Below, one piece after another: positions 648-10,003 of a stretch of 10,368 bases of DNA. The notes beneath the pieces were generated by a model. The model was not told the origin of the DNA. It ran no database searches and saw nothing but the letters and a program-made list of their open reading frames with translations. The translations under genes were made by a program, and so were the position numbers. The stretch is from the UHGV virus genome UHGV-0067349; one strand, given 5' to 3'. Numbering within the stretch: position 1 is the first letter of the stretch; each line of letters starts with the position of its first letter. This stretch comes from a virus.

Positions 648-723
648 TGGTGCTGGTTAACGGACTTGAACCGCTACCCATTCGCTTACAAGGCGACTGC
701 TCTACCATTGGAGCTAAACCAGC
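648..723 (-). tRNA. tRNA-Thr-like, anticodon UGU
   Basis: Manual cloverleaf fold of the minus-strand 76-mer GCTGGTTTAGCTCCAATGGTAGAGCAGTCGCCTTGTAAGCGAATGGGTAGCGGTTCAAGTCCGTTAACCAGCACCA. Perfect 7-bp acceptor stem, 4-bp D stem GCTC/GAGC, anticodon loop CTTGTAA, T loop TTCAAGT, 3' CCA encoded. One G.A mismatch at the top of the anticodon stem. Confidence 0.6.
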
Positions 724-728
724 ATATT

Positions 729-803
729 TGGCGGGACAGCGTGGACTCGAACCACGATAAGAAGGTTAACAGCCTTCCGTAATGACCTTTATACGACTGA
801 CCC
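729..803 (-). tRNA. tRNA-Asn-like, anticodon GUU (irregular D arm; possibly degenerate)
   Basis: Minus-strand 75-mer GGGTCAGTCGTATAAAGGTCATTACGGAAGGCTGTTAACCTTCTTATCGTGGTTCGAGTCCACGCTGTCCCGCCA. Good anticodon arm GAAGG/CTGTTAA/CCTTC, T arm CGTGG/TTCGAGT/CCACG, CCA end. Acceptor stem has one T.T mismatch and the D stem is only 3 bp. Separated from the tRNA-Thr-like gene by 5 nt. Confidence 0.45.
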
Positions 804-1077: not shown

Positions 1078-1701
1078 CTAACGTGTGACCGCATTCAAAA
1101 TATTGTCTGCGATTGACTCTTCCTTGTGGCATTGCACCACCAGAGCGTCATACAGCGGCTTAACAGTGCGTGACCAGGTGGGTTGGGTAAGGTTTGGGAT
1201 TAGCATCGTTACAGCGCGATATGCGGCGCTTGCTGGCATCCTGGAATAGCCGACGCCTTTGCATCTTCCGCACTCTTTTTCGACAACTCTCCCCCACTGC
1301 TCTGTTTTGGCAATATCAACCGCACGGCCTGTACCGTGGCAATCTCTGCATCTTGCGCCCGGCGTCGCGGCACTACGGCAATAATCCGCATAAGCGAATG
1401 TTGCGAGCACTTGCAGTACCTTTGCCTTAGTATTTCCTTCAAGTTTTGCAACGCCACGGTATTTCCCCGATACCTTGTGTGCAAATTGCATCAGATAGTT
1501 GATAGCCTTTTGTTTGTCGTTCTGGCTGAGTTCATGCTTACCGCAGAATGCAGCCATTCCGAATCCGGCTTGTGATTGCGCCATCCCCATAGCAGCCATC
1601 ACATCAGTACCGGAAAGAGAGTCAGAAGCCGTAGCCCGTGGTGAGTCGCTCATCATCGGGCTTTTTGGCGAATGAAATTTAGCTACGCTTTCGAGTCTCA
1701 T
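1078..1701 (-). CDS. Q: Late-gene antiterminator Q (lambda Q type)
   Basis: 207-aa ORF MRLESVAKFHSPKSPMMSDSPRATASD...CRDCHGTGRAVD...ECGRCKGVGYSRMPASAAYRAVTMLIPNLTQPTWSRTV..., recalled as essentially lambda Q with a Cys-rich zinc motif. SD GGGGAAGG upstream; ATGA overlap with the ninH stop; located just upstream of PR'. Confidence 0.9.
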   Translation of the reverse strand: MRLESVAKFHSPKSPMMSDSPRATASDSLSGTDVMAAMGMAQSQAGFGMAAFCGKHELSQNDKQKAINYLMQFAHKVSGKYRGVAKLEGNTKAKVLQVLATFAYADYCRSAATPGARCRDCHGTGRAVDIAKTEQWGRVVEKECGRCKGVGYSRMPASAAYRAVTMLIPNLTQPTWSRTVKPLYDALVVQCHKEESIADNILNAVTR

Positions 1702-4736: not shown

Positions 4737-6113
4737 TCATACGTCAGCCCCTTGTGTATATCGTCTGCCACGCGCAGCAGGTGCATTTGATGCTGTGCAA
4801 ATCTGTCTGGCTTCATCCTGGTCACATGCAACAAAGTGTCCGTTACAGAACCGCTGGTAAACCGTACCAAGCGAGCCAAAACGGTTTTTCGTCACAATGA
4901 TTTCAGCAAATGGCGCGGCGCTACTGTTCTCGTCATATACCGCTTCCCGATAGAGCATGATGATTGAGTCTGCGTCCTGTTCAATGCTTCCTGAATCACG
5001 CAAATCTGCGTTTGTCGGGCGTTTGTTTGGTCGCTTCTCAACATCGCGCGAAAGCTGACTCAGGGAGATAACGGGCGTTTTCAGGTCTTTCGCCATCGCC
5101 TTCAGGCTTCCGGAGATGTGAGCAATTGCGAGGTCGTTGCGGTCTGCTTTCGGCTTCTCAATCAGACCAAGATAATCCACCATGATGAGTGACAGGTTTG
5201 GATTTTCCTGTTTGTGCCGTTCTGCGATTGAGCGTATTTCTTCGACCGATAACCGCGAGGCATCGACTACCCATACATCCAAATCTGCAAGCTGACTCAT
5301 GCCGTTAGCAACGCGCGCCCAGCCTTCGTCATCCATCGATGCAGGATTTCGCAGCACGCTAACCGACATCCTCCCGGCGTTGGCAATGCTTCGCTCTGCA
5401 ATCTGCAATGCGCTCATTTCCATTGAGAAAATCAACACTCCGCGCCGGACGTCAGAACCAGGAATAACGCGGCTTGCAACGCCTTCGGCAATCTTCAGCG
5501 CCAGCTCGGTTTTCCCCATACCAGGACGAGCAGCGATTATCACCAGGTCTTCTGCGTTCATCCCTCCGGTGATGGCGTCAAGTTCTTCGATTCCGGTCTT
5601 CATGGTATCTGACTCTTCTCCGTTCCTCAGACGCCTGTCAAGCGTGTCAGTGTAGTCAGTGATGATTTCCCCTAACCGTACAGGTTTAACCTCGTCACGG
5701 GGCTTTCTGATGGCTGAGAGACGCTTTACAAGCTCGTCCATCGCCTGACTCGATGTATCGATGGTTCCGCTCTGAATTGGTTCACGCATTTCATCCATGA
5801 TTTCCAGCACCAGACGGCGGTGATAGTTATCCGCGACCATTCCGGCGTATCCCTTCAGGTTTGCGGCACTCGGGCAGTTCTTACTGGTCATCAGGATTGA
5901 CGTGAAATGCTCCTCTCCGCACGCCTCGGCAACCATCAGCGCGTCGATTAGGTTTCTGTTTCTCGCCTGCTTGCGGATAACCTCGAAGGCTTTCCGGTAG
6001 AGCGGAATTGAAAACGCTTCCGGCTCCAGCGTTGCCAGAACGTCACTGGCGGTTGGTGTTAATCCACCAATCAGCAGGCCACCGATAACGCTCGCTTCGA
6101 TATCCTGTTTCAT
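4737..6113 (-). CDS. Replicative DNA helicase, DnaB family (P22 gene 12-type phage helicase)
   Basis: 458-aa ORF with an N-terminal DnaB-like domain, Walker A GMGKTELA, and RecA-fold motifs ([24 protein letters not shown]). GGGGGA SD; ATGA overlap with the upstream O-like gene. Confidence 0.9.
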
Positions 6114-6931
6114 GCAATCCCCCTGTCTGCAAACTTACCTTCCCGTACCCCCGTTAACGAGTCTTCCCTCAGCAGGTAATCAAAATCGGCCGTCCAGCCC
6201 GTGTCGTTGTCTCCGAAGTAAAACGGCTTGGCCTGATGCACAAACGCCCTGACATACGCTCTGAAACCGTCCACGTTTGGCGTTTTCAGTTGCGGGATGA
6301 TTTTCTTCAGGCGGCGTTTGCGTTTCTCGTTGACCGCAACAGCGTGTGGCAGTCTGTCACCGACTTCGGTGTTGTAGGCGTTCAGGAAGGATTCGTAGTC
6401 GATTCGTTCTGCCTTGCGACGTTCAGGTTTAACCTGCCCATCACCGCCCCCGTTAGGGGGTAAGGGGGTATTTGTATTTATTGTCTTTTGTATATTGTCT
6501 TTTGTGTTTAGCTGACTTGGCTTATACCCATTAGCCGACTTGGCTAATGTTTTATTAGCTGTTTTAGCTAATGTTAAGCTGTCCTGGCTAATCCACTGAG
6601 AAACCACCTTGTTCACTCCGATTTTCACGCCATCAGCAATGAGGAATTTACGCTCAATAAGCTGGCGCTTGGCAGCGCAAACATGAGTGTGATGAATACC
6701 TGTCATGGCTGCTATCTGCGTGTTTGTGAGTCGATCCATCGGCTTATTGAATCCGTATGTCTTGCGCATGATAGCGAGCATCACCTTCAACTGCCGGACG
6801 GTTAAATCAGCCATCAGCAGACTGTCGGTAATCTCGTTAGCAACGCGCATGAAACCATCTTCGGTATCTGCCACGCGATGCTCCACGACCTCCAGTTGAG
6901 GCCTGTAATCAGCTAACTTAACGACGCCCAT
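6110..6931 (-). CDS. Replication initiation protein, lambda O-like (P22 gene 18-type), containing the origin
   Basis: 273-aa ORF. N-terminal region aligns with the lambda O DNA-binding domain ([12 protein letters not shown]...[32 protein letters not shown]). Central low-complexity linker ([23 protein letters not shown]...PLPPNGGG) is encoded by the iteron/AT-rich DNA. SD AGGAGTG. Confidence 0.85.
6469..6593. repeat. Origin of replication: four iteron-like direct repeats plus adjacent AT-rich region, inside the O-like gene
   Basis: Plus-strand repeats GCTGACTTGGCTTATA (6511), GCCGACTTGGCTAATG (6534), GCTGTTTTAGCTAATG (6558), GCTGTCCTGGCTAATC (6578), spaced 20-24 bp. Flanked at 6469-6510 by an AT-rich block with duplicated TTGTCTTTTGT, and by the palindrome CCCCCGTTAGGGGG at 6446-6459. 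Same architecture as lambda ori within O. Confidence 0.65.
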
Positions 6932-7088: not shown

Positions 7089-7156
7089 TGTGGATTGATC
7101 CAGTCTTTCTACATCAGGCCTCAAAACTGTTGCAGCAGTCTTGAGGCTTTTCTTTT
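7089..7156 (+). ncRNA. oop-like antisense RNA with intrinsic terminator inside the cII 3' end
   Basis: Plus-strand terminator at 7118-7156: GCCTCAAAACTG-ttgcag-CAGTCTTGAGGC (12-bp stem, one mismatch) followed by TTTTCTTTT. It lies antisense within the last codons of cII. A candidate -10 CATAAT sits at 7077-7082. Same arrangement as lambda oop; the 5' end is inferred. Confidence 0.4.
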
Positions 7157-7392
7157 GTCAGCACTATGGCTACTTTCTTTGCCAGCTCCGCTAATTCCTC
7201 GTCTTCAACACCCCACTCCAGCACAGCCAGAAGCATGGCCATCTTTGGGATAAAGCTGTCTTTCCATCGCGAAATTTGCGATTCATTGATCCCTAATGCA
7301 TCAGCAACCTTTCGCTGACCACGTACAGCAATTCGATTTAGGATGTTGCTTGTAATTGCATTCGCTTTCTTGCGAGTACTTGTAAGTTGCAT
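7114..7392 (-). CDS. cII: Transcriptional activator CII
   Basis: Internal ATG at 7392 of track ORF 7114..7479, with AAGGAAA SD. Gives MQLTSTRKKANAITSNILNRIAVRGQRKVADALGINESQISRWKDSFIPKMAMLLAVLEWGVEDEELAELAKKVAIVL..., matching the lambda CII core (SQISRWKRDWIPKFSMLLAVLEWGV) from memory. Confidence 0.8.
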   Translation of the reverse strand: MQLTSTRKKANAITSNILNRIAVRGQRKVADALGINESQISRWKDSFIPKMAMLLAVLEWGVEDEELAELAKKVAIVLTKEKPQDCCNSFEA

Positions 7393-7449
7393 ATGTAAGT
7401 ATTTCCTTAACAAATAAGAAGTTATGCGCATCAACTTATGCGCGTTGTA

Positions 7450-7495
7450 TTCCCGCATTTCGGCGGGAATGAGGACCATGACTGTTAAAGAGCGG
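7450..7495 (-). promoter_or_regulatory. nutR (boxA plus boxB hairpin) between cro and cII
   Basis: Minus strand has boxA CGCTCTTTAACA (plus 7484-7495), a 14-nt spacer, then boxB hairpin UUCCCGC-CGAAAU-GCGGGAA (plus 7450-7469). The same boxA/boxB pair recurs on the plus strand downstream of PL. Confidence 0.6.
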
Positions 7496-7500
7496 TGTTA

Positions 7501-7695
7501 CTATTTGTTTTTCTTGTTGCTTGGGAAAGGACGAACTTCCTCTCCAATCACACTGCCATCAGGCTTTACCGTAACCATGATGTTACGGCCTGCCAGAATG
7601 GCCTTGCTGATAGCGCACTGGATTACACCAAAGTCACTGGCTGCTTTAGCCTGTCCATGGATTTTGGCGTAATCGGCAAGTGTCATTCGAATCAT
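7501..7695 (-). CDS. cro: Cro repressor
   Basis: ATG at 7695 with GGAG 7 nt upstream: [64 protein letters not shown] (64 aa). Roughly 60 percent similar to lambda Cro by eye; diverged in the recognition helix. The track start at 7701 is an upstream GTG. Confidence 0.85.
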
Positions 7696-7724
7696 ATGCA
7701 CTCTCCGTTATTAACCATGAACAA

Positions 7725-7795
7725 AGAATACTACAGGTATTCAAAGCAATCAATACTCAGGGTATTTTTAGTTTAAGTACCTTAGCTATTAGAAT
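7725..7795. promoter_or_regulatory. OR operator region with divergent PR (minus strand) and PRM (plus strand)
   Basis: Three 15-bp sites of form AATAC-N5-GTATT: OR1 7727-7741 AATACTACAGGTATT, OR2 7752-7766 AATACTCAGGGTATT, weaker OR3 7776-7790 AGTACCTTAGCTATT. PR on minus strand: -35 TTGATT (7748-7753), -10 TATTCT (7725-7730), 17-nt spacer. PRM on plus strand: -10 TAGAAT at 7790-7795, 7 nt before the cI ATG with no SD, implying leaderless cI mRNA as in lambda. Confidence 0.6.
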
Positions 7796-7801
7796 TAAGC
7801 T

Positions 7802-8518
7802 ATGGAAAATAAAAAATCACTGACGACAGAACAGCTCGAAGACGCTAAGCGGCTTAAGGCTTTGTATGAGTCAAAAAAGAAAGAATTGGGAATAACCCAA
7901 TACTCAATCGCTGATGAACTGGGTATCACCCAAGGAGCGGTAGGGCATTATCTTAATGGCAGAAACGCGCTAAACGTTGAGGTTGCATCTGGTTTTGCAC
8001 GATTGTTGCAAGTCTCAATTGCTGATTTTAGCCAGTCAATTGCTGCCAAGGTTGCAGAACAGGCAGAAAGCCTTAAGAGCGATGCCAACGTAAGGTATGC
8101 AGGGGAATACAGAGCAGGAAAGAGGTATCCGGTGTTAAGCAGTATCCAGGCTGGCTCGTGGTGTGAAGCATGCGAACCATACACCATTAAAGACATAGAT
8201 GTTTGGCTTGAGTCTGACGCGCATATTCAAGGTAATGCGTTTTGGCTTAAAGTGGAAGGTGATTCAATGACGGCACCGGTTGGGTTAAGCATTCCAGAGG
8301 GAACATTCGTTCTTTTCGATACCGGAAGGGAGGCGATCAACGGCAGCTTGGTCATAGCAAAACTTTCTGACTCTAACGAAGCAACATTCAAGAAGCTGAT
8401 AATCGACGGCGGAAATAAATACCTCAAGGGACTTAACCCTGCATGGCCTCTCGTGCCAATCAATGGAAACTGCAAGATTATAGGCGTTGCAATTGAGACA
8501 AAACTAAGGCTGGTTTGA
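7802..8518 (+). CDS. cI: CI prophage repressor (HTH N-domain plus LexA-like S24 autocleavage C-domain)
   Basis: 238-aa ORF MENKKSLTTEQLEDAKRLKALYESKKKELGITQYSIADELGITQGAVGHYLNG... Parallels lambda cI, with AG cleavage site (IQAGSW), catalytic Ser motif VEGDSMTAP and Lys motif TFKKL. Divergent from, and heteroimmune to, lambda. Confidence 0.9.
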   Translation: MENKKSLTTEQLEDAKRLKALYESKKKELGITQYSIADELGITQGAVGHYLNGRNALNVEVASGFARLLQVSIADFSQSIAAKVAEQAESLKSDANVRYAGEYRAGKRYPVLSSIQAGSWCEACEPYTIKDIDVWLESDAHIQGNAFWLKVEGDSMTAPVGLSIPEGTFVLFDTGREAINGSLVIAKLSDSNEATFKKLIIDGGNKYLKGLNPAWPLVPINGNCKIIGVAIETKLRLV

Positions 8519-8535
8519 TCACGCAAGGGGCGATT

Positions 8536-8904
8536 ATGGTTGGAACCGCTATAGCAAGCTTTTTGGGGATGTTGGCAATCTCAACAATTTACGGCTTAGC
8601 GCATGCTTTTATTGCGAAATCTCTATCAGAAAAAATAAGCCAGGCTTGGGCGCATAGATCAGCTCGTTTCATGATTCTGGTGATCATGGCAATACAAGGG
8701 ATATCTGCATTTATCCTCTATGGATCAAGCTTATGCCTATTGTATCAAGGCGCGACATTTACGCCTTACACCAGTGATTACGGAACTCTATACGATGGTA
8801 GTGAAGACATCTCTATGGCTTGGATTGTCTTTGGTTTATCTATGGCCGTGTCTGTTGTAGCAGACATCATTAAGGTAATTCTCGTCTTAACCTTCGCTGA
8901 CTAA
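8536..8904 (+). CDS. Three-TM membrane protein co-transcribed downstream of cI (rexAB-position moron); function unknown
   Basis: ATG at 8536 with AAGGGG 5 nt upstream, 17 nt after the cI stop, same strand. MVGTAIASFLGMLAISTIYGLAHAFIAKSLSEKISQAWAHRSARFMILVIMAIQGISAFILYGSSLCLLYQGATFTPYTSDYGTLYDGSEDISMAWIVFGLSMAVSVVADIIKVILVLTFAD. Three hydrophobic helices. The track start at 8515 is an upstream TTG. Confidence 0.65.
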   Translation: MVGTAIASFLGMLAISTIYGLAHAFIAKSLSEKISQAWAHRSARFMILVIMAIQGISAFILYGSSLCLLYQGATFTPYTSDYGTLYDGSEDISMAWIVFGLSMAVSVVADIIKVILVLTFAD

Positions 8905-9037
8905 CCCATAATCCCGGCAGCAATAGCTATCGGGATCCACTTCACATATCCCGCATAAAAAGCACTGAACAAGCAGACACCGAAAAAAATAAATATCCTT
9001 TGTATTCATTTACTTATCATTATTTCACCAAAAAATA

Positions 9038-9079
9038 AATACCTTGGGTATTTACACAATAAAATACCTACAGTATTCT
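9038..9079 (+). promoter_or_regulatory. OL operators and PL promoter
   Basis: OL2 9038-9052 AATACCTTGGGTATT and OL1 9063-9077 AATACCTACAGTATT, the same AATAC-N5-GTATT motif and 25-bp centre spacing as OR1/OR2. PL: -35 TTTACA (9051-9056), 17-nt spacer, -10 TATTCT (9074-9079), identical to the PR -10. Confidence 0.55.
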
Positions 9080-9125
9080 TTAGCCATCAGCAGGACGCTG
9101 GAAGCCAAACGGAATAGATTGGCAG

Positions 9126-9167
9126 GCTCTTTAACATTGATGGGATTGTCCCGCCGAAATGCGGGAA
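9126..9167 (+). promoter_or_regulatory. nutL (boxA plus boxB)
   Basis: boxA GCTCTTTAACA (9126-9136), a 12-nt spacer, then boxB hairpin TCCCGC-CGAAAT-GCGGGAA (9149-9167). Core identical to nutR; about 40 nt downstream of the predicted PL start. Confidence 0.6.
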
Positions 9168-9680
9168 CTGAGTTTAACCAAACAGGAGGTGCCGTAATGG
9201 TGCACTAACGCGGTTAGACCGCAGCCGAAAGGCAATGCAGCAGTAATGATGCTGCCCCGAGTCGCGTAATGGCGAGCAGGTTTAGCAGACCGATGTGAGG
9301 GTAAATAAGGGAACATGCTCCGGAAAGGCAGCGCGAATGCCAGACGCGCACCGGTTATCAGCGGCTAATAAGCGACAGAGACTCAAGGGCATGAGCGCGC
9401 TCACTGCGAGAGTGTGAGTCAAAGAGTAGTTGGCTTTGGGGTGACGTGAAGTGCAGCTGCACGACGGCAACCGGAAGATAAGCACCCGGCGCGTCACCGC
9501 CAAAGTCAATTCCATAGGCGTTATGCAGCCGCCACCATATTCAAGAAAGCTGCACAAGAGGTAGGAGGATTTATGTGAATACTTACATTCAGTTGAGAGA
9601 TTAATTAAATAGAACTGATCGAGCAGAGTCCATAAAGGCTCATAAATGCTCTTCCATCCCCGTCTAATTGGCGGGGAAGG

Positions 9681-9716
9681 AAACAACTTTGTAATAAAAA
9701 AATTCCAAAGTTGTTT
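9681..9716 (+). promoter_or_regulatory. 11-bp perfect hairpin immediately upstream of the N ribosome-binding site
   Basis: AAACAACTTTG-(14-nt A-rich loop)-CAAAGTTGTTT, ending 4 nt before GGAGG and 14 nt before the N ATG. Analogous in position to the RNase III-processed leader hairpin that modulates N translation in lambda. Confidence 0.4.
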
Positions 9717-9730
9717 CATCGGAGGTCAAC

Positions 9731-10003
9731 ATGACAGTAGTCATTACATATCTGGCTGACGATAACGCCAGAAATCGCCGCAGAGCACGCAGACAGGCTC
9801 AACGTGAACAGGCAATGCAAGAGCAGCGACTGGCGCGAAAGATTGCGCTAAAGCTCTCTGGTTGCGTCAGAGCAGACAAAGCAGCATCACTCGGAAGCCT
9901 TCGCTGTAAGAAGGCAGATGAATGCAGTGGAAGTATTTGCCTGCCAAACGTAGCCATTTACGCGGCAGGCTACCGGAAATCAAAACAACTGACGGCGAGA
10001 TGA
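9731..10003 (+). CDS. N: Antiterminator N (arginine-rich motif); reading frame appears interrupted relative to the conserved C-terminus
   Basis: ATG at 9731 with GGAGG SD. MTVVITYLADDNARNRRRARRQAQREQAMQEQRLARKIALKLSGCVRADKAASLGSLRCKKADE... carries an ARM like lambda N (QTRRRERRAEKQAQW). The lambda-like N C-terminus (..GEMTCVGRQKQRGKSIPAYYD, stop 10057-10059) is in the -1 frame (open 9922-10059). Confidence 0.6.
   Translation: MTVVITYLADDNARNRRRARRQAQREQAMQEQRLARKIALKLSGCVRADKAASLGSLRCKKADECSGSICLPNVAIYAAGYRKSKQLTAR

Follow-up and report, generated by a model that had tools for sequence, protein, structure and literature searches.

The control region analysed here is very probably the immunity (immC-type) region of a lambdoid prophage of HK620 immunity, a bistable switch with the architecture of that of lambda and a different DNA specificity. 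It is contained in a stretch of 10,368 bp from virus genome UHGV-0067349 (the window, to which all coordinates refer). The immunity module itself is already known and holds nothing to surprise a specialist; our small additions to the record are the position of the third leftward operator, probably at 8991–9007, and a structured RNA in the N leader.

Genes, operators and promoters of the switch

In the window, cI (7802–8518, + strand) and cro (7501–7695, − strand, including the stop codon) are divergent and separated by 106 bp that contain three operator sites, as expected for a lambdoid switch. The cI product (238 aa; Pfam HTH_3 and Peptidase_S24) shares 43% identity with lambda cI as a whole, rising to 50% in the N-terminal domain, and its closest solved structure is that of lambda repressor (3bdn, E 3e-52). 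Alignment with lambda cI showed conservation of QAG (Ala117-Gly118), GDSM (Ser155) and FKKL (Lys197), as corresponds to a helix-turn-helix repressor with an S24 autopeptidase domain. The 64 aa Cro protein matches Pfam PF09048 (E 3.6e-26; 91.3 bits, with the gathering cut-off at 32.7) along profile positions 1–59 of 59, placing it in the lambda Cro fold family; it is 63% identical to lambda Cro, and its closest solved structures are lambda Cro entries 1cop and 6cro. The initial annotation considered that both genes had diverged in their recognition regions, and they do encode lambda homologs that differ at recognition-helix positions: the recognition helix (helix 3) of cI is TQGAVGHYLNG here and GQSGVGALFNG in lambda, and the Cro helix contains QCAISK here and QSAINK in lambda.

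The exact motif AATACNNNNNGTATT (AATAC-N5-GTATT) appeared four times in the window (7727–7741, 7752–7766, 9038–9052 and 9063–9077), always inside the two predicted control regions and against a chance expectation of 0.01; none of 200 dinucleotide-preserving shuffles, used as null model, yielded four sites. Allowing up to two mismatches, there were nine matches in the whole window versus 4.2 expected, so that taken by themselves the degenerate sites lack significance. Two of them occupy operator positions, AGTACCTTAGCTATT at 7776–7790 and AATATCCTTTGTATT, with one mismatch, at 8992–9006; neither is significant as a motif match alone, and we called OR3 and OL3 from their position and their conservation in the family. 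The operators are of the 17-bp lambda type, with the 15-bp motif as their conserved core, and by homology with lambda these sites almost certainly serve to bind the repressor in a prophage switch like that of lambda.

The 17-mers of OR1 (GAATACTACAGGTATTC, 7726–7742, core 7727–7741) and OR2 (CAATACTCAGGGTATTT, 7751–7767) contain the exact motif, and OR3 (AAGTACCTTAGCTATTA, 7775–7791) is a weak site with two core mismatches; the centers of the three sites, at 7734, 7759 and 7783, are spaced by 25 and 24 bp. Promoter PR (7725–7753, − strand) has the structure TTGATT-17-TATTCT, its −10 and −35 hexamers being the reverse complements of 7725–7730 and 7748–7753, respectively. These hexamers match the consensus at 8 of 12 positions, slightly below the threshold of our promoter scan; PR is absent from the scan list and was read directly from the sequence. 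The putative PRM promoter (7767–7795, + strand) comprises a −35-like hexamer, TTTAGT (7767–7772), adjoining OR2, and a −10 hexamer, TAGAAT (7790–7795), that overlaps the final 2 nt of OR3 and is separated by 6 nt (TAAGCT) from the cI ATG, a layout exactly like that of lambda (TAGATT-TAACGT-ATG). Most of 43 enterobacterial entries have TAnnAT at this −10 position, with few deviations (the Microbulbifer entries were not assessable), and the 6 nt ahead of the ATG vary among relatives. No Shine-Dalgarno sequence was found at a usable distance upstream of the cI ATG, either here or in most of the 43 entries. By homology with lambda, the cI mRNA from PRM is probably leaderless, with its 5′ end at or adjoining the A of the ATG; the initial annotation had already described cI as apparently leaderless, which agrees with the placement of the start codon with respect to OR3 and the −10, as in the leaderless layout of lambda.

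On the other side of cI, OL1 (AAATACCTACAGTATTC, 9062–9078) and OL2 (AAATACCTTGGGTATTT, 9037–9053) also contain the exact motif and, together with the probable OL3, have their centers at 9070, 9045 and 8999, with spacings of 25 and 46 bp. OL1 and OL2 overlap promoter PL (9051–9079, + strand; TTTACA-17-TATTCT), which was identified by the promoter consensus scan and whose −10 overlaps OL1; nutL and N are located downstream, as expected for the second operator cluster of a lambdoid switch. The five sites initially reported, three in OR (one of them degenerate) and two in OL, thus correspond to the four exact copies plus OR3 at 7776–7790, and the center positions bear out the identical 25-bp spacing claimed for sites 1 and 2 of both operators. 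The −10 hexamer TATTCT said to be shared by both promoters is found at 9074–9079 (+ strand) for PL and, for PR, as the reverse complement of 7725–7730. The two sites listed for OL also stand, but that list missed the probable third, at 8991–9007, with a single mismatch.

The neighboring elements are those of a lambdoid early region. The nutR site (7452–7495, − strand) consists of boxA CGCTCTTTAA (7486–7495) and a boxB hairpin, CCCGCCGAAATGCGGG (7452–7467), and the same boxB sequence is present (9150–9165) in nutL (9126–9165, + strand), next to boxA GCTCTTTAA (9126–9134). The N antiterminator gene (9731–10003, + strand) codes for a 90 aa product with the arginine-rich motif NARNRRRARRQAQ (Pfam PF25694, N_peptide, E 1e-15) and two differences from HK620 N. 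A gene for a small hydrophobic protein similar to HkaS of HK620 (8536–8904, + strand; PHROG 6534, function unknown) occupies the position of lambda rexAB in the same orientation as cI, so that a small membrane protein is encoded here where lambda has rexAB; a Pfam search with this protein gave no match. Two reverse-strand ORFs, at 9282–9719 (145 aa) and 8887–9009 (40 aa), lack a PHROG family and were taken as non-coding.

The N leader contains an unannotated structured RNA, at about 9184–9422, with strong covariation support, which is more interesting than the immunity finding itself. Searches of Rfam, with the gathering threshold for the whole window and an E-value threshold for 8900–9760, had two tRNAs as their only hits, and neither the immunity region nor the N leader gave a match. 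This RNA is unlikely to be a prophage Pas sRNA, as judged by comparing descriptions only: according to a preprint, Pas genes adjoin the holin/lysozyme operon, have Rho-independent terminators and occur largely in Escherichia and Shigella only.

Relationship to HK620 and other immunity groups

In the comparison with HK620, DNA identity was 98.8% over 1769 bp, and it was 98–99% across HK620, HK630, HK140, mEpX2, HF4s and Stx2c phages. The order cII-cro-OR-cI-hkaS-OL-nutL is shared with HK620 (AF335538, NC_002730) at this level of identity. Cro is identical to that of HK620, and cI shows one difference, A66T, outside the recognition helix; the six motif-bearing 17-mers, including OR1, OR2, OR3, OL1, OL2 and the proposed OL3, are also identical. 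The repressor (A66T aside), Cro and operators are therefore those of the HK620 immunity group. The GenBank record of HK620, which PMC2629481 attributes to Clark et al. (2001), already annotates OR1–3, OL1–3, pR, pL and the nut sites, and for OR1–3, OL1–2, pR, pL, nutL and nutR the annotation falls on the same bases as here; consequently, the operator finding is correct but ordinary. The window differs from HK620 in carrying two insertions in the N leader (9169–9419 and 9511–9716), in its mosaic replication and late genes, and in our assignment of OL3 to 8991–9007.

The distribution of the module bears on whether it could represent a lambdoid immunity specificity not catalogued before. The motif presumably differs from the operators of 434 and P22. 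It is also unlike those of lambda (NC_001416), as was stated initially, with a half-site of nAATACy versus TATCACC. Moreover, in a set of 50,697 phage records, identity above 60% with the N-terminal domain of the cI described here was limited to the HK620-type phages, Hafnia phage Pocitis76 and E. coli phage Fostie. Nevertheless, a novel specificity is highly improbable, because the module is present at 98–99% identity in no fewer than 15 deposited phage records besides HK620, its operators are annotated in AF335538, and of 5426 complete E. coli genomes 146 contain the cassette; apart from the phages mentioned above, it was found in HZ41, phi296/phi367 and the Stx2c phages Stx2_EH1904 and Stx2_5044. 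The comparison with catalogued lambdoid immunity groups proposed in the initial annotation thus ends in a match to the HK620 module. A literature search, with the HK620 genome and Cro-code papers outside its reach, found no experimental work on the HK620 repressor or operators.

The module does not belong to the lambda group, since neither the TATCACC(G) half-site nor the lambda cI and Cro helices are present; together with the assignment to the HK620 group, this suggests, at the level of sequence, that the immunity specificity is indeed different, as had been claimed. The architecture is nonetheless lambda-like: operators are 17-bp dyads of odd length, the −10 of PR is embedded in OR1, and PRM has its −10 overlapping the end of OR3, with 6 nt between this hexamer and the ATG. 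The OR centers lie at −68, −43 and −19 from the cI ATG, compared with −66, −42 and −19 in lambda, with spacings of 25 and 24 bp instead of 24 and 23 bp, and about 45 bp separate the proposed OL3 from OL2, where lambda has 20 bp. The immunity regions of 434 and P22 share the overall logic, with divergent repressor and cro genes and three OR operators. However, both phages use operators of even length (14 bp, ACAA-N6-TTGT, in 434 and 18 bp in P22) and have an all-alpha Cro, whereas Cro in the window belongs to the lambda Cro family PF09048, with lambda Cro as the best PDB match. The remark "similar to 434 and L cI" in the HK620 record is less apt than a reference to lambda, the best solved relative of this cI.

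Operator conservation and recognition

Within the group showing 98–99% identity, 1 of 30 operator core positions was variable as compared with 9 of 76 other positions, which is the expected direction but comprises too few variable positions for significance. For this reason, we turned to diverged relatives, assembling a set of 34 non-redundant loci with 40–88% identity in the cI N-terminal domain, from Serratia, Pantoea, Yersinia, Proteus, Providencia, Tatumella, Lonsdalea, Pectobacterium, Hafnia phage Pocitis76 and Microbulbifer. All 34 have the recognition helix [ST]QGAVGHYLNG, and most of them have sites at all three OR positions, even though the spacers and the central 5 bp differ. All 34 relatives have OR1 between −66 and −69 relative to the cI ATG (exact in 28 and with one mismatch in 6), and OR2 is maintained at −42 to −44. 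Conversely, OR3 (−19/−20) is always imperfect, with one core mismatch in 23 relatives, two in 5 and three in 6, the latter being scarcely recognizable; the commonest deviation is AATAG. In 134 half-sites, positions 2 to 6 were A, A, T, A and C in 134, 131, 134, 134 and 120 cases, respectively, position 7 was C or T in 128, and positions 1, 8 and 9 were free. Of 33 family members, 30 have a PR −10 of the form TATTnT embedded in the half-site of OR1.

Family members, including Pocitis76 (OL512804), share the motif, the OR geometry and the OL1–OL2 spacing, which is 24–25 bp in every relative with an identified OL; they differ in spacers, in central base pairs and in the third OL site, situated 21, 29 or 45 bp from OL2. 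Many of them also have a Cro of another subfamily (VHQTAISK). The sites read TATAC-N5-GTAT(T/A) in more distant relatives whose Gln44 is replaced by Lys (TKGAVSHWLN), that is, helix and motif covary.

These comparisons weigh upon the possibility that the palindromes arose by chance, the intergenic regions being A+T-rich, or are bound by a regulator other than cI and Cro, whose binding is deduced by homology. We regard this as extremely unlikely: besides the failure of the shuffles to produce four sites, across the 34 diverged loci the motif keeps fixed distances to the start of cI and follows the cI recognition helix, and it is altered where the helix is altered.

Compared with TATCACC of lambda, the half-site 5′-nAATACy-3′ changes at positions 3–4 (AT versus TC). 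The cI protein retains Gln44, Asn55 and Lys4 of lambda, and operator positions A2 and C6 are likewise retained, whereas Gly replaces Ser45 and position 4 has T instead of C. The change at positions 3–4 is thus matched by S45G in the recognition helix of cI; in lambda cI, Ser45 is reported to contact base pair 4 (structure 1LMB). For Cro, the sequence IQCAISK and the half-site nAATAC fit the three pairings of the Cro code as given in PMC6649833, which cites Hall et al. 2005 and 2011 (H1 Gln with A2, H3 Ala with A5 and H6 Lys with C6).

Proposed switch and the third leftward operator

By homology with lambda, which is also the basis for predicting cooperativity, PRM activation and SOS induction, cI dimers would bind the 17-bp dyad operators through the half-site 5′-nAATACy-3′. 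In the lysogen, cI on OR1 and OR2 would cover the −10 and −35 of PR, and cI on OL1 and OL2 would cover PL, which would keep cro, cII, O and P, as well as N, silent. Bound at OR2, adjoining the −35 of PRM, cI would probably stimulate this promoter, as its positive-control residue Asp38 is conserved, and the weak OR3, overlapping the −10 of PRM, would mediate negative autoregulation at high cI levels. Upon DNA damage, RecA-stimulated self-cleavage at Ala117-Gly118 would remove cI, and the lambda-fold Cro would then occupy the same sites and shut off PRM.

OL probably has a third site at 8991–9007 (AAATATCCTTTGTATTC), with one core mismatch and at 45–46 bp from OL2, as suggested by sequence conservation. 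Its core shows no variation in 46 distinct close relatives, and a motif-like site occurs exactly 45 bp from OL2 in seven diverged relatives (L148, L012, L149, L062, L010, L011 and L029), being exact in L029. The HK620 record, however, annotates OL3 at the equivalent of 9015–9031 (TATCATTATTTCACCAA), 22 bp from OL2, in which case 8991–9007 would be a chance match. A spacing of 21–22 bp would be close to the 20 bp of lambda, and in some relatives (L021, L014, L015, L009 and L013) the third site is indeed 21 bp from OL2. Yet 9015–9031 mismatches 8 of 10 core positions and varies at four positions among close relatives, one of which differs in 22 of the 46 sequences, and we discarded it as a motif match; together with the near-perfect, invariant and recurrent site at 8991–9007, this makes the annotated position an unlikely OL3. 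Going further, we put forward, as an evenly balanced proposal, that the true OL3 of the HK620 group is 8991–9007, about 45 bp or 4.3 helical turns from OL2, rather than that of AF335538, and that nAATACy defines an unusually old and widespread immunity class, constant across repressors diverged to 40% identity, from Enterobacterales to Microbulbifer.

The immunity group of this prophage is now named, with exact coordinates for its operators, promoters and nut sites. For this prophage we predict homoimmunity with HK620, HK630, HK140, mEpX2 and certain Stx2c phages, and heteroimmunity to lambda. The module constitutes a clean natural case in which cI and Cro of the lambda type have shifted their specificity at operator positions 3–4, with matching amino acid changes, and the 34 diverged relatives could serve as a comparative data set for repressor specificity. 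If OL3 does lie at 8991–9007, OL would be built unlike that of lambda, and this could change OL–OR looping and the repression of PRM.

The immunity region and its counterpart in HK620

The ORF list and family scans indicated that the window is a lambdoid early region in the orientation opposite to the lambda map, with genes for Q (1078-1701, minus strand; named from its translation and position), a DnaB-like helicase (4737-6113, minus) and an O-like replication protein (6110-6931, minus), both names being taken from homologous prophage records, cII (7114-7392, minus), cro (7501-7695, minus), cI (7802-8518, plus) and N (9731-10003, plus). Just downstream of Q, two tRNA genes, tRNA-Thr (TGT) and tRNA-Asn (GTT), occupy 648-803 (minus) with no toxin gene between them, and precede an ORF (201-404, minus) that reads as holin-like from its translation.

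Four exact copies of the operator core AATACNNNNNGTATT were found in the window, at 7727-7741, 7752-7766, 9038-9052 and 9063-9077, against a chance expectation of 0.01, and none of 200 shuffles reached four copies. Allowing two mismatches gave 9 matches versus 4.2 expected, so that degenerate copies alone carry no statistical weight; two of them lie at expected operator positions, AGTACCTTAGCTATT at 7776-7790, corresponding to OR3, and AATATCCTTTGTATT at 8992-9006, at OL. From centre to centre, neighbouring sites are 25 and 24 bp apart at OR, and 46 and 25 bp apart at OL. The hexamer TATTCT occurs at 9074-9079 (plus) and as the reverse complement of 7725-7730, and a promoter scan returned PL as TTTACA-17-TATTCT; PR reads TTGATT-17-TATTCT, scoring 8/12. 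Motif counting and direct reading of the sequence located the sites, spacings and -10 hexamers of the initial annotation exactly where it had placed them.

In megablast searches, the interval 7400-9300 matched phage records with 98-99% identity over 93-99% of the query, including HK620, HK630, HK140, mEpX2, HF4s, HZ41, phi296/phi367 and two Stx2c-converting phages. The annotation of the HK620 record (AF335538) comprises pRE, nutR, cro, pR, OR1, OR2, OR3, cI, hkaS, tIMM, OL3, OL2, pL, OL1, nutL and N, and its OR1-3, OL1 and OL2 map onto the motif sites of the window. Cro is identical in both phages, cI differs solely by A66T, and the six motif-bearing 17-mers are the same. The locus is therefore the already annotated HK620 immunity region, with no novelty except for the reassignment of OL3 and the family-wide picture presented below. 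The cassette is present at ≥95% identity in 146 of 5426 complete E. coli genomes, and in at least 586 stretches in IMG/VR.

Between cI and OL, the position of rexAB in lambda, lies a gene (8536-8904, plus) for a small, hydrophobic, hkaS-like membrane protein of 122 aa from the ATG at 8536. Its product matches PHROG 6534, of unknown function, and had no match in a Pfam scan; it is presumably expressed from PRM in lysogens, where it is a candidate for a role in exclusion.

Predicted operator recognition by cI and Cro

The cI protein contains HTH_3 and Peptidase_S24 domains and is 43% identical to lambda cI overall (50% over residues 4-98). Cro, a full-length PF09048 (lambda Cro) protein, is 63% identical to its lambda counterpart; the closest solved structures are lambda repressor (3bdn, 1lmb) and lambda Cro (1cop, 6cro), respectively.

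To the lambda consensus half-site T-A-T-C-A-C-C corresponds, in the 17-bp frame of the window, n1-A2-A3-T4-A5-C6-Y7. Numbering of the window cI in the alignment happens to equal that of mature lambda repressor, from which it retains Lys4, Lys5, Gln33, Asp38, Gln44, Asn52 and Asn55, but differs by Ser45 to Gly, Gly46 to Ala, Ala49 to His, Leu50 to Tyr and Phe51 to Leu. In the 1LMB complex, Gln44 reads A2, Ser45 reads the G of base pair 4, and base pair 6 is read by Asn55 with Lys4. From these contacts, the kept residues fit the kept positions (2, 5 and 6) and the changed residues the changed positions (3 and 4). The window Cro reads I-Q-C-A-I-S-K and its half-site has A2, A5 and C6, thereby satisfying all three rules of the Cro 'evolutionary code' (H1 Gln-A2, H3 Ala-A5 and H6 Lys-C6) as summarised in PMC6649833.

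We gathered 164 loci encoding relatives of cI and retained 34 non-redundant ones with the recognition helix [ST]QG[AG][VI][GA]HY[LIM]N[GA]. They originate from Serratia, Pantoea, Yersinia, Proteus, Providencia, Tatumella, Lonsdalea, Pectobacterium, Lelliottia, Siccibacter, Enterobacter, Scandinavium, Kluyvera, Hafnia phage Pocitis76 and Microbulbifer, and are 40-88% identical in the N-terminal domain. Upstream of cI, most have a site in each of the three OR positions and a few only two clear sites, with centres at -66 to -70, -41 to -45 and -18 to -22. OR1 was exact in 28 relatives and had one mismatch in 6, and OR2 was exact in 23 with one mismatch in 9; OR3 was never perfect, with one (23 relatives), two (5) or three (6) mismatches and AATAG as the usual deviation. 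Half-site positions 2 to 6 were A, A, T, A and C in, respectively, 134, 131, 134, 134 and 120 of 134 cases, position 7 was a pyrimidine in 128/134, and positions 1, 8 and 9 were unconstrained. The PR -10 was TATTnT in 30 of 33. This comparison provides strong evidence that the motif is the operator and would be read in the lambda manner. The interpretation of the locus as an immunity region, proposed in the initial annotation, is correct.

In the more distantly related repressors of four loci (L023, L025, L033 and L064), Lys replaces Gln as the first residue of the helix (TKGAVSHWLN). These carry TATAC-N5-GTAT(T/A) sites, with one site detected upstream of the gene, centred at about -36, which is a different operator layout. 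This is a natural case of residue 44 and operator position 2 varying together, and the change at position 2 is the one that a residue-44 contact would lead one to expect.

Measured from the cI ATG, the centres of OR3, OR2 and OR1 lie at distances of 19, 43 and 68 bp in the window and of 19, 42 and 66 bp in the lambda record. On the cI strand, lambda reads T-ATCCC-TTGCG-GTGAT-A-GATT-TAACGT-ATG and the window A-AGTAC-CTTAG-CTATT-A-GAAT-TAAGCT-ATG. In both, the final two bases of the OR3 17-mer are also the first two of a TAGAnT -10 hexamer, which is followed by six bases and the start codon, without a Shine-Dalgarno sequence. The predicted PRM and cI start of the window have the geometry of the leaderless PRM transcript of lambda. 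Most of 43 enterobacterial entries retain a PRM-like TAnnAT at the same distance from the ATG, with a variable six-base sequence separating the two.

A proposed third leftward operator

The OL3 of the HK620 record corresponds to 9015-9031 (TATCATTATTTCACCAA), where 8 of 10 core positions mismatch the motif and positions 9019, 9025, 9028 (in 22 of 46 sequences) and 9030 are polymorphic among close relatives. The site at 8991-9007 has one mismatch, is shared unchanged with HK620, and shows no variation in its core among close relatives. A motif-like site also occurs exactly 45 bp from OL2 in seven diverged cI-relative loci (L148, L012, L149, L062, L010, L011 and L029, the last with an exact site); in other lineages the third OL site lies 21 bp from OL2, a spacing like that of lambda. 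The single mismatch, the invariant core and the recurrence at 45 bp, together with the poor match and polymorphism of 9015-9031, lead us to propose with moderate confidence that 8991-9007 is OL3.

A reverse-strand ORF of 40 aa (8887-9009, minus) has an ATG that overlaps the proposed OL3. This ORF falls in no PHROG family and probably does not represent a gene; small hypothetical proteins are annotated in this interval in some deposited phage records.

The N leader

The boxB hairpin is one and the same 16-mer, CCCGCCGAAATGCGGG, at nutR (7452-7467, minus) and nutL (9150-9165, plus), and at both places a boxA of the form GCTCTTTAA precedes it. The boxB loop is unlike that of lambda, and a boxB specificity of its own is therefore probable for the N protein (arginine-rich motif NARNRRRARRQ).

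Relative to HK620, the leader between nutL and N contains two insertions, 9169-9419 and 9511-9716, both of which are also present in an E. coli 55989 prophage whose immunity region differs. Also between nutL and N, a stem of about 21 bp, AGTTGGCTTTGGGGTGACGTG ... CGCGTCACCGCCAAAGTCAAT, occupies approximately 9428-9510 (plus). HK620, E. coli 55989 and other prophages preserve this stem through compensatory changes, and in Hafnia phage Pocitis76 its counterpart (locus L003, 3395-3525) encloses an annotated tRNA-Gly; the stem may correspond to the RNase III site in the lambda N leader. The second insertion (9511-9716, plus) contains a conserved start-stop element, AGGAGGATTTATGTGA, with flanks that differ between two variant cassettes, and at least one hairpin, TCCATCCCCG..CGGGGAAGGA versus TCTGCCCCTC..GAGGGGCCAGA, whose arms, examined by eye, change compensatingly between variants.

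Inside the first insertion lies an unannotated element of about 220 nt (9184-9422, plus). Copies with 77-99% identity occur in mEp213, Stx2c phages, Hafnia phage yong1, Klebsiella phages RothC and RothD, E. coli phage 733R5 and Providencia phage PSTCR7lys, and in at least 120 IMG/VR contigs. Their location is variable, either after PL/nutL, after Q and a terminator-like hairpin (read in the RothC row of the alignment) or in a late operon, always co-oriented with the flanking genes, and the genes downstream are diverse accessory genes. We evaluated a 41-pair model on 95 distinct copies that had been aligned with MAFFT without regard to structure, and took slid partners as controls. Standard pairs were formed in 92% of cells (24-43% in controls), 22 pairs (6-15) and 146 cells (11-38) had changes on both sides, and the covariation score was 0.157 (at most 0.043); values as high as these arose in none of 500 shuffles. 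Immediately ahead of the first helix, 77 of 94 copies have a Shine-Dalgarno sequence and the end of a mini-ORF of 1-6 codons, most often three; that of the window is AGGAGG-N7-ATG GTG CAC TAA (9184-9208, with ATG to TAA at 9197-9208). The element, which had no match in Rfam 15, has the appearance of a structured RNA, as yet unnamed, that is carried by temperate enterobacterial phages; this candidate merits separate follow-up.
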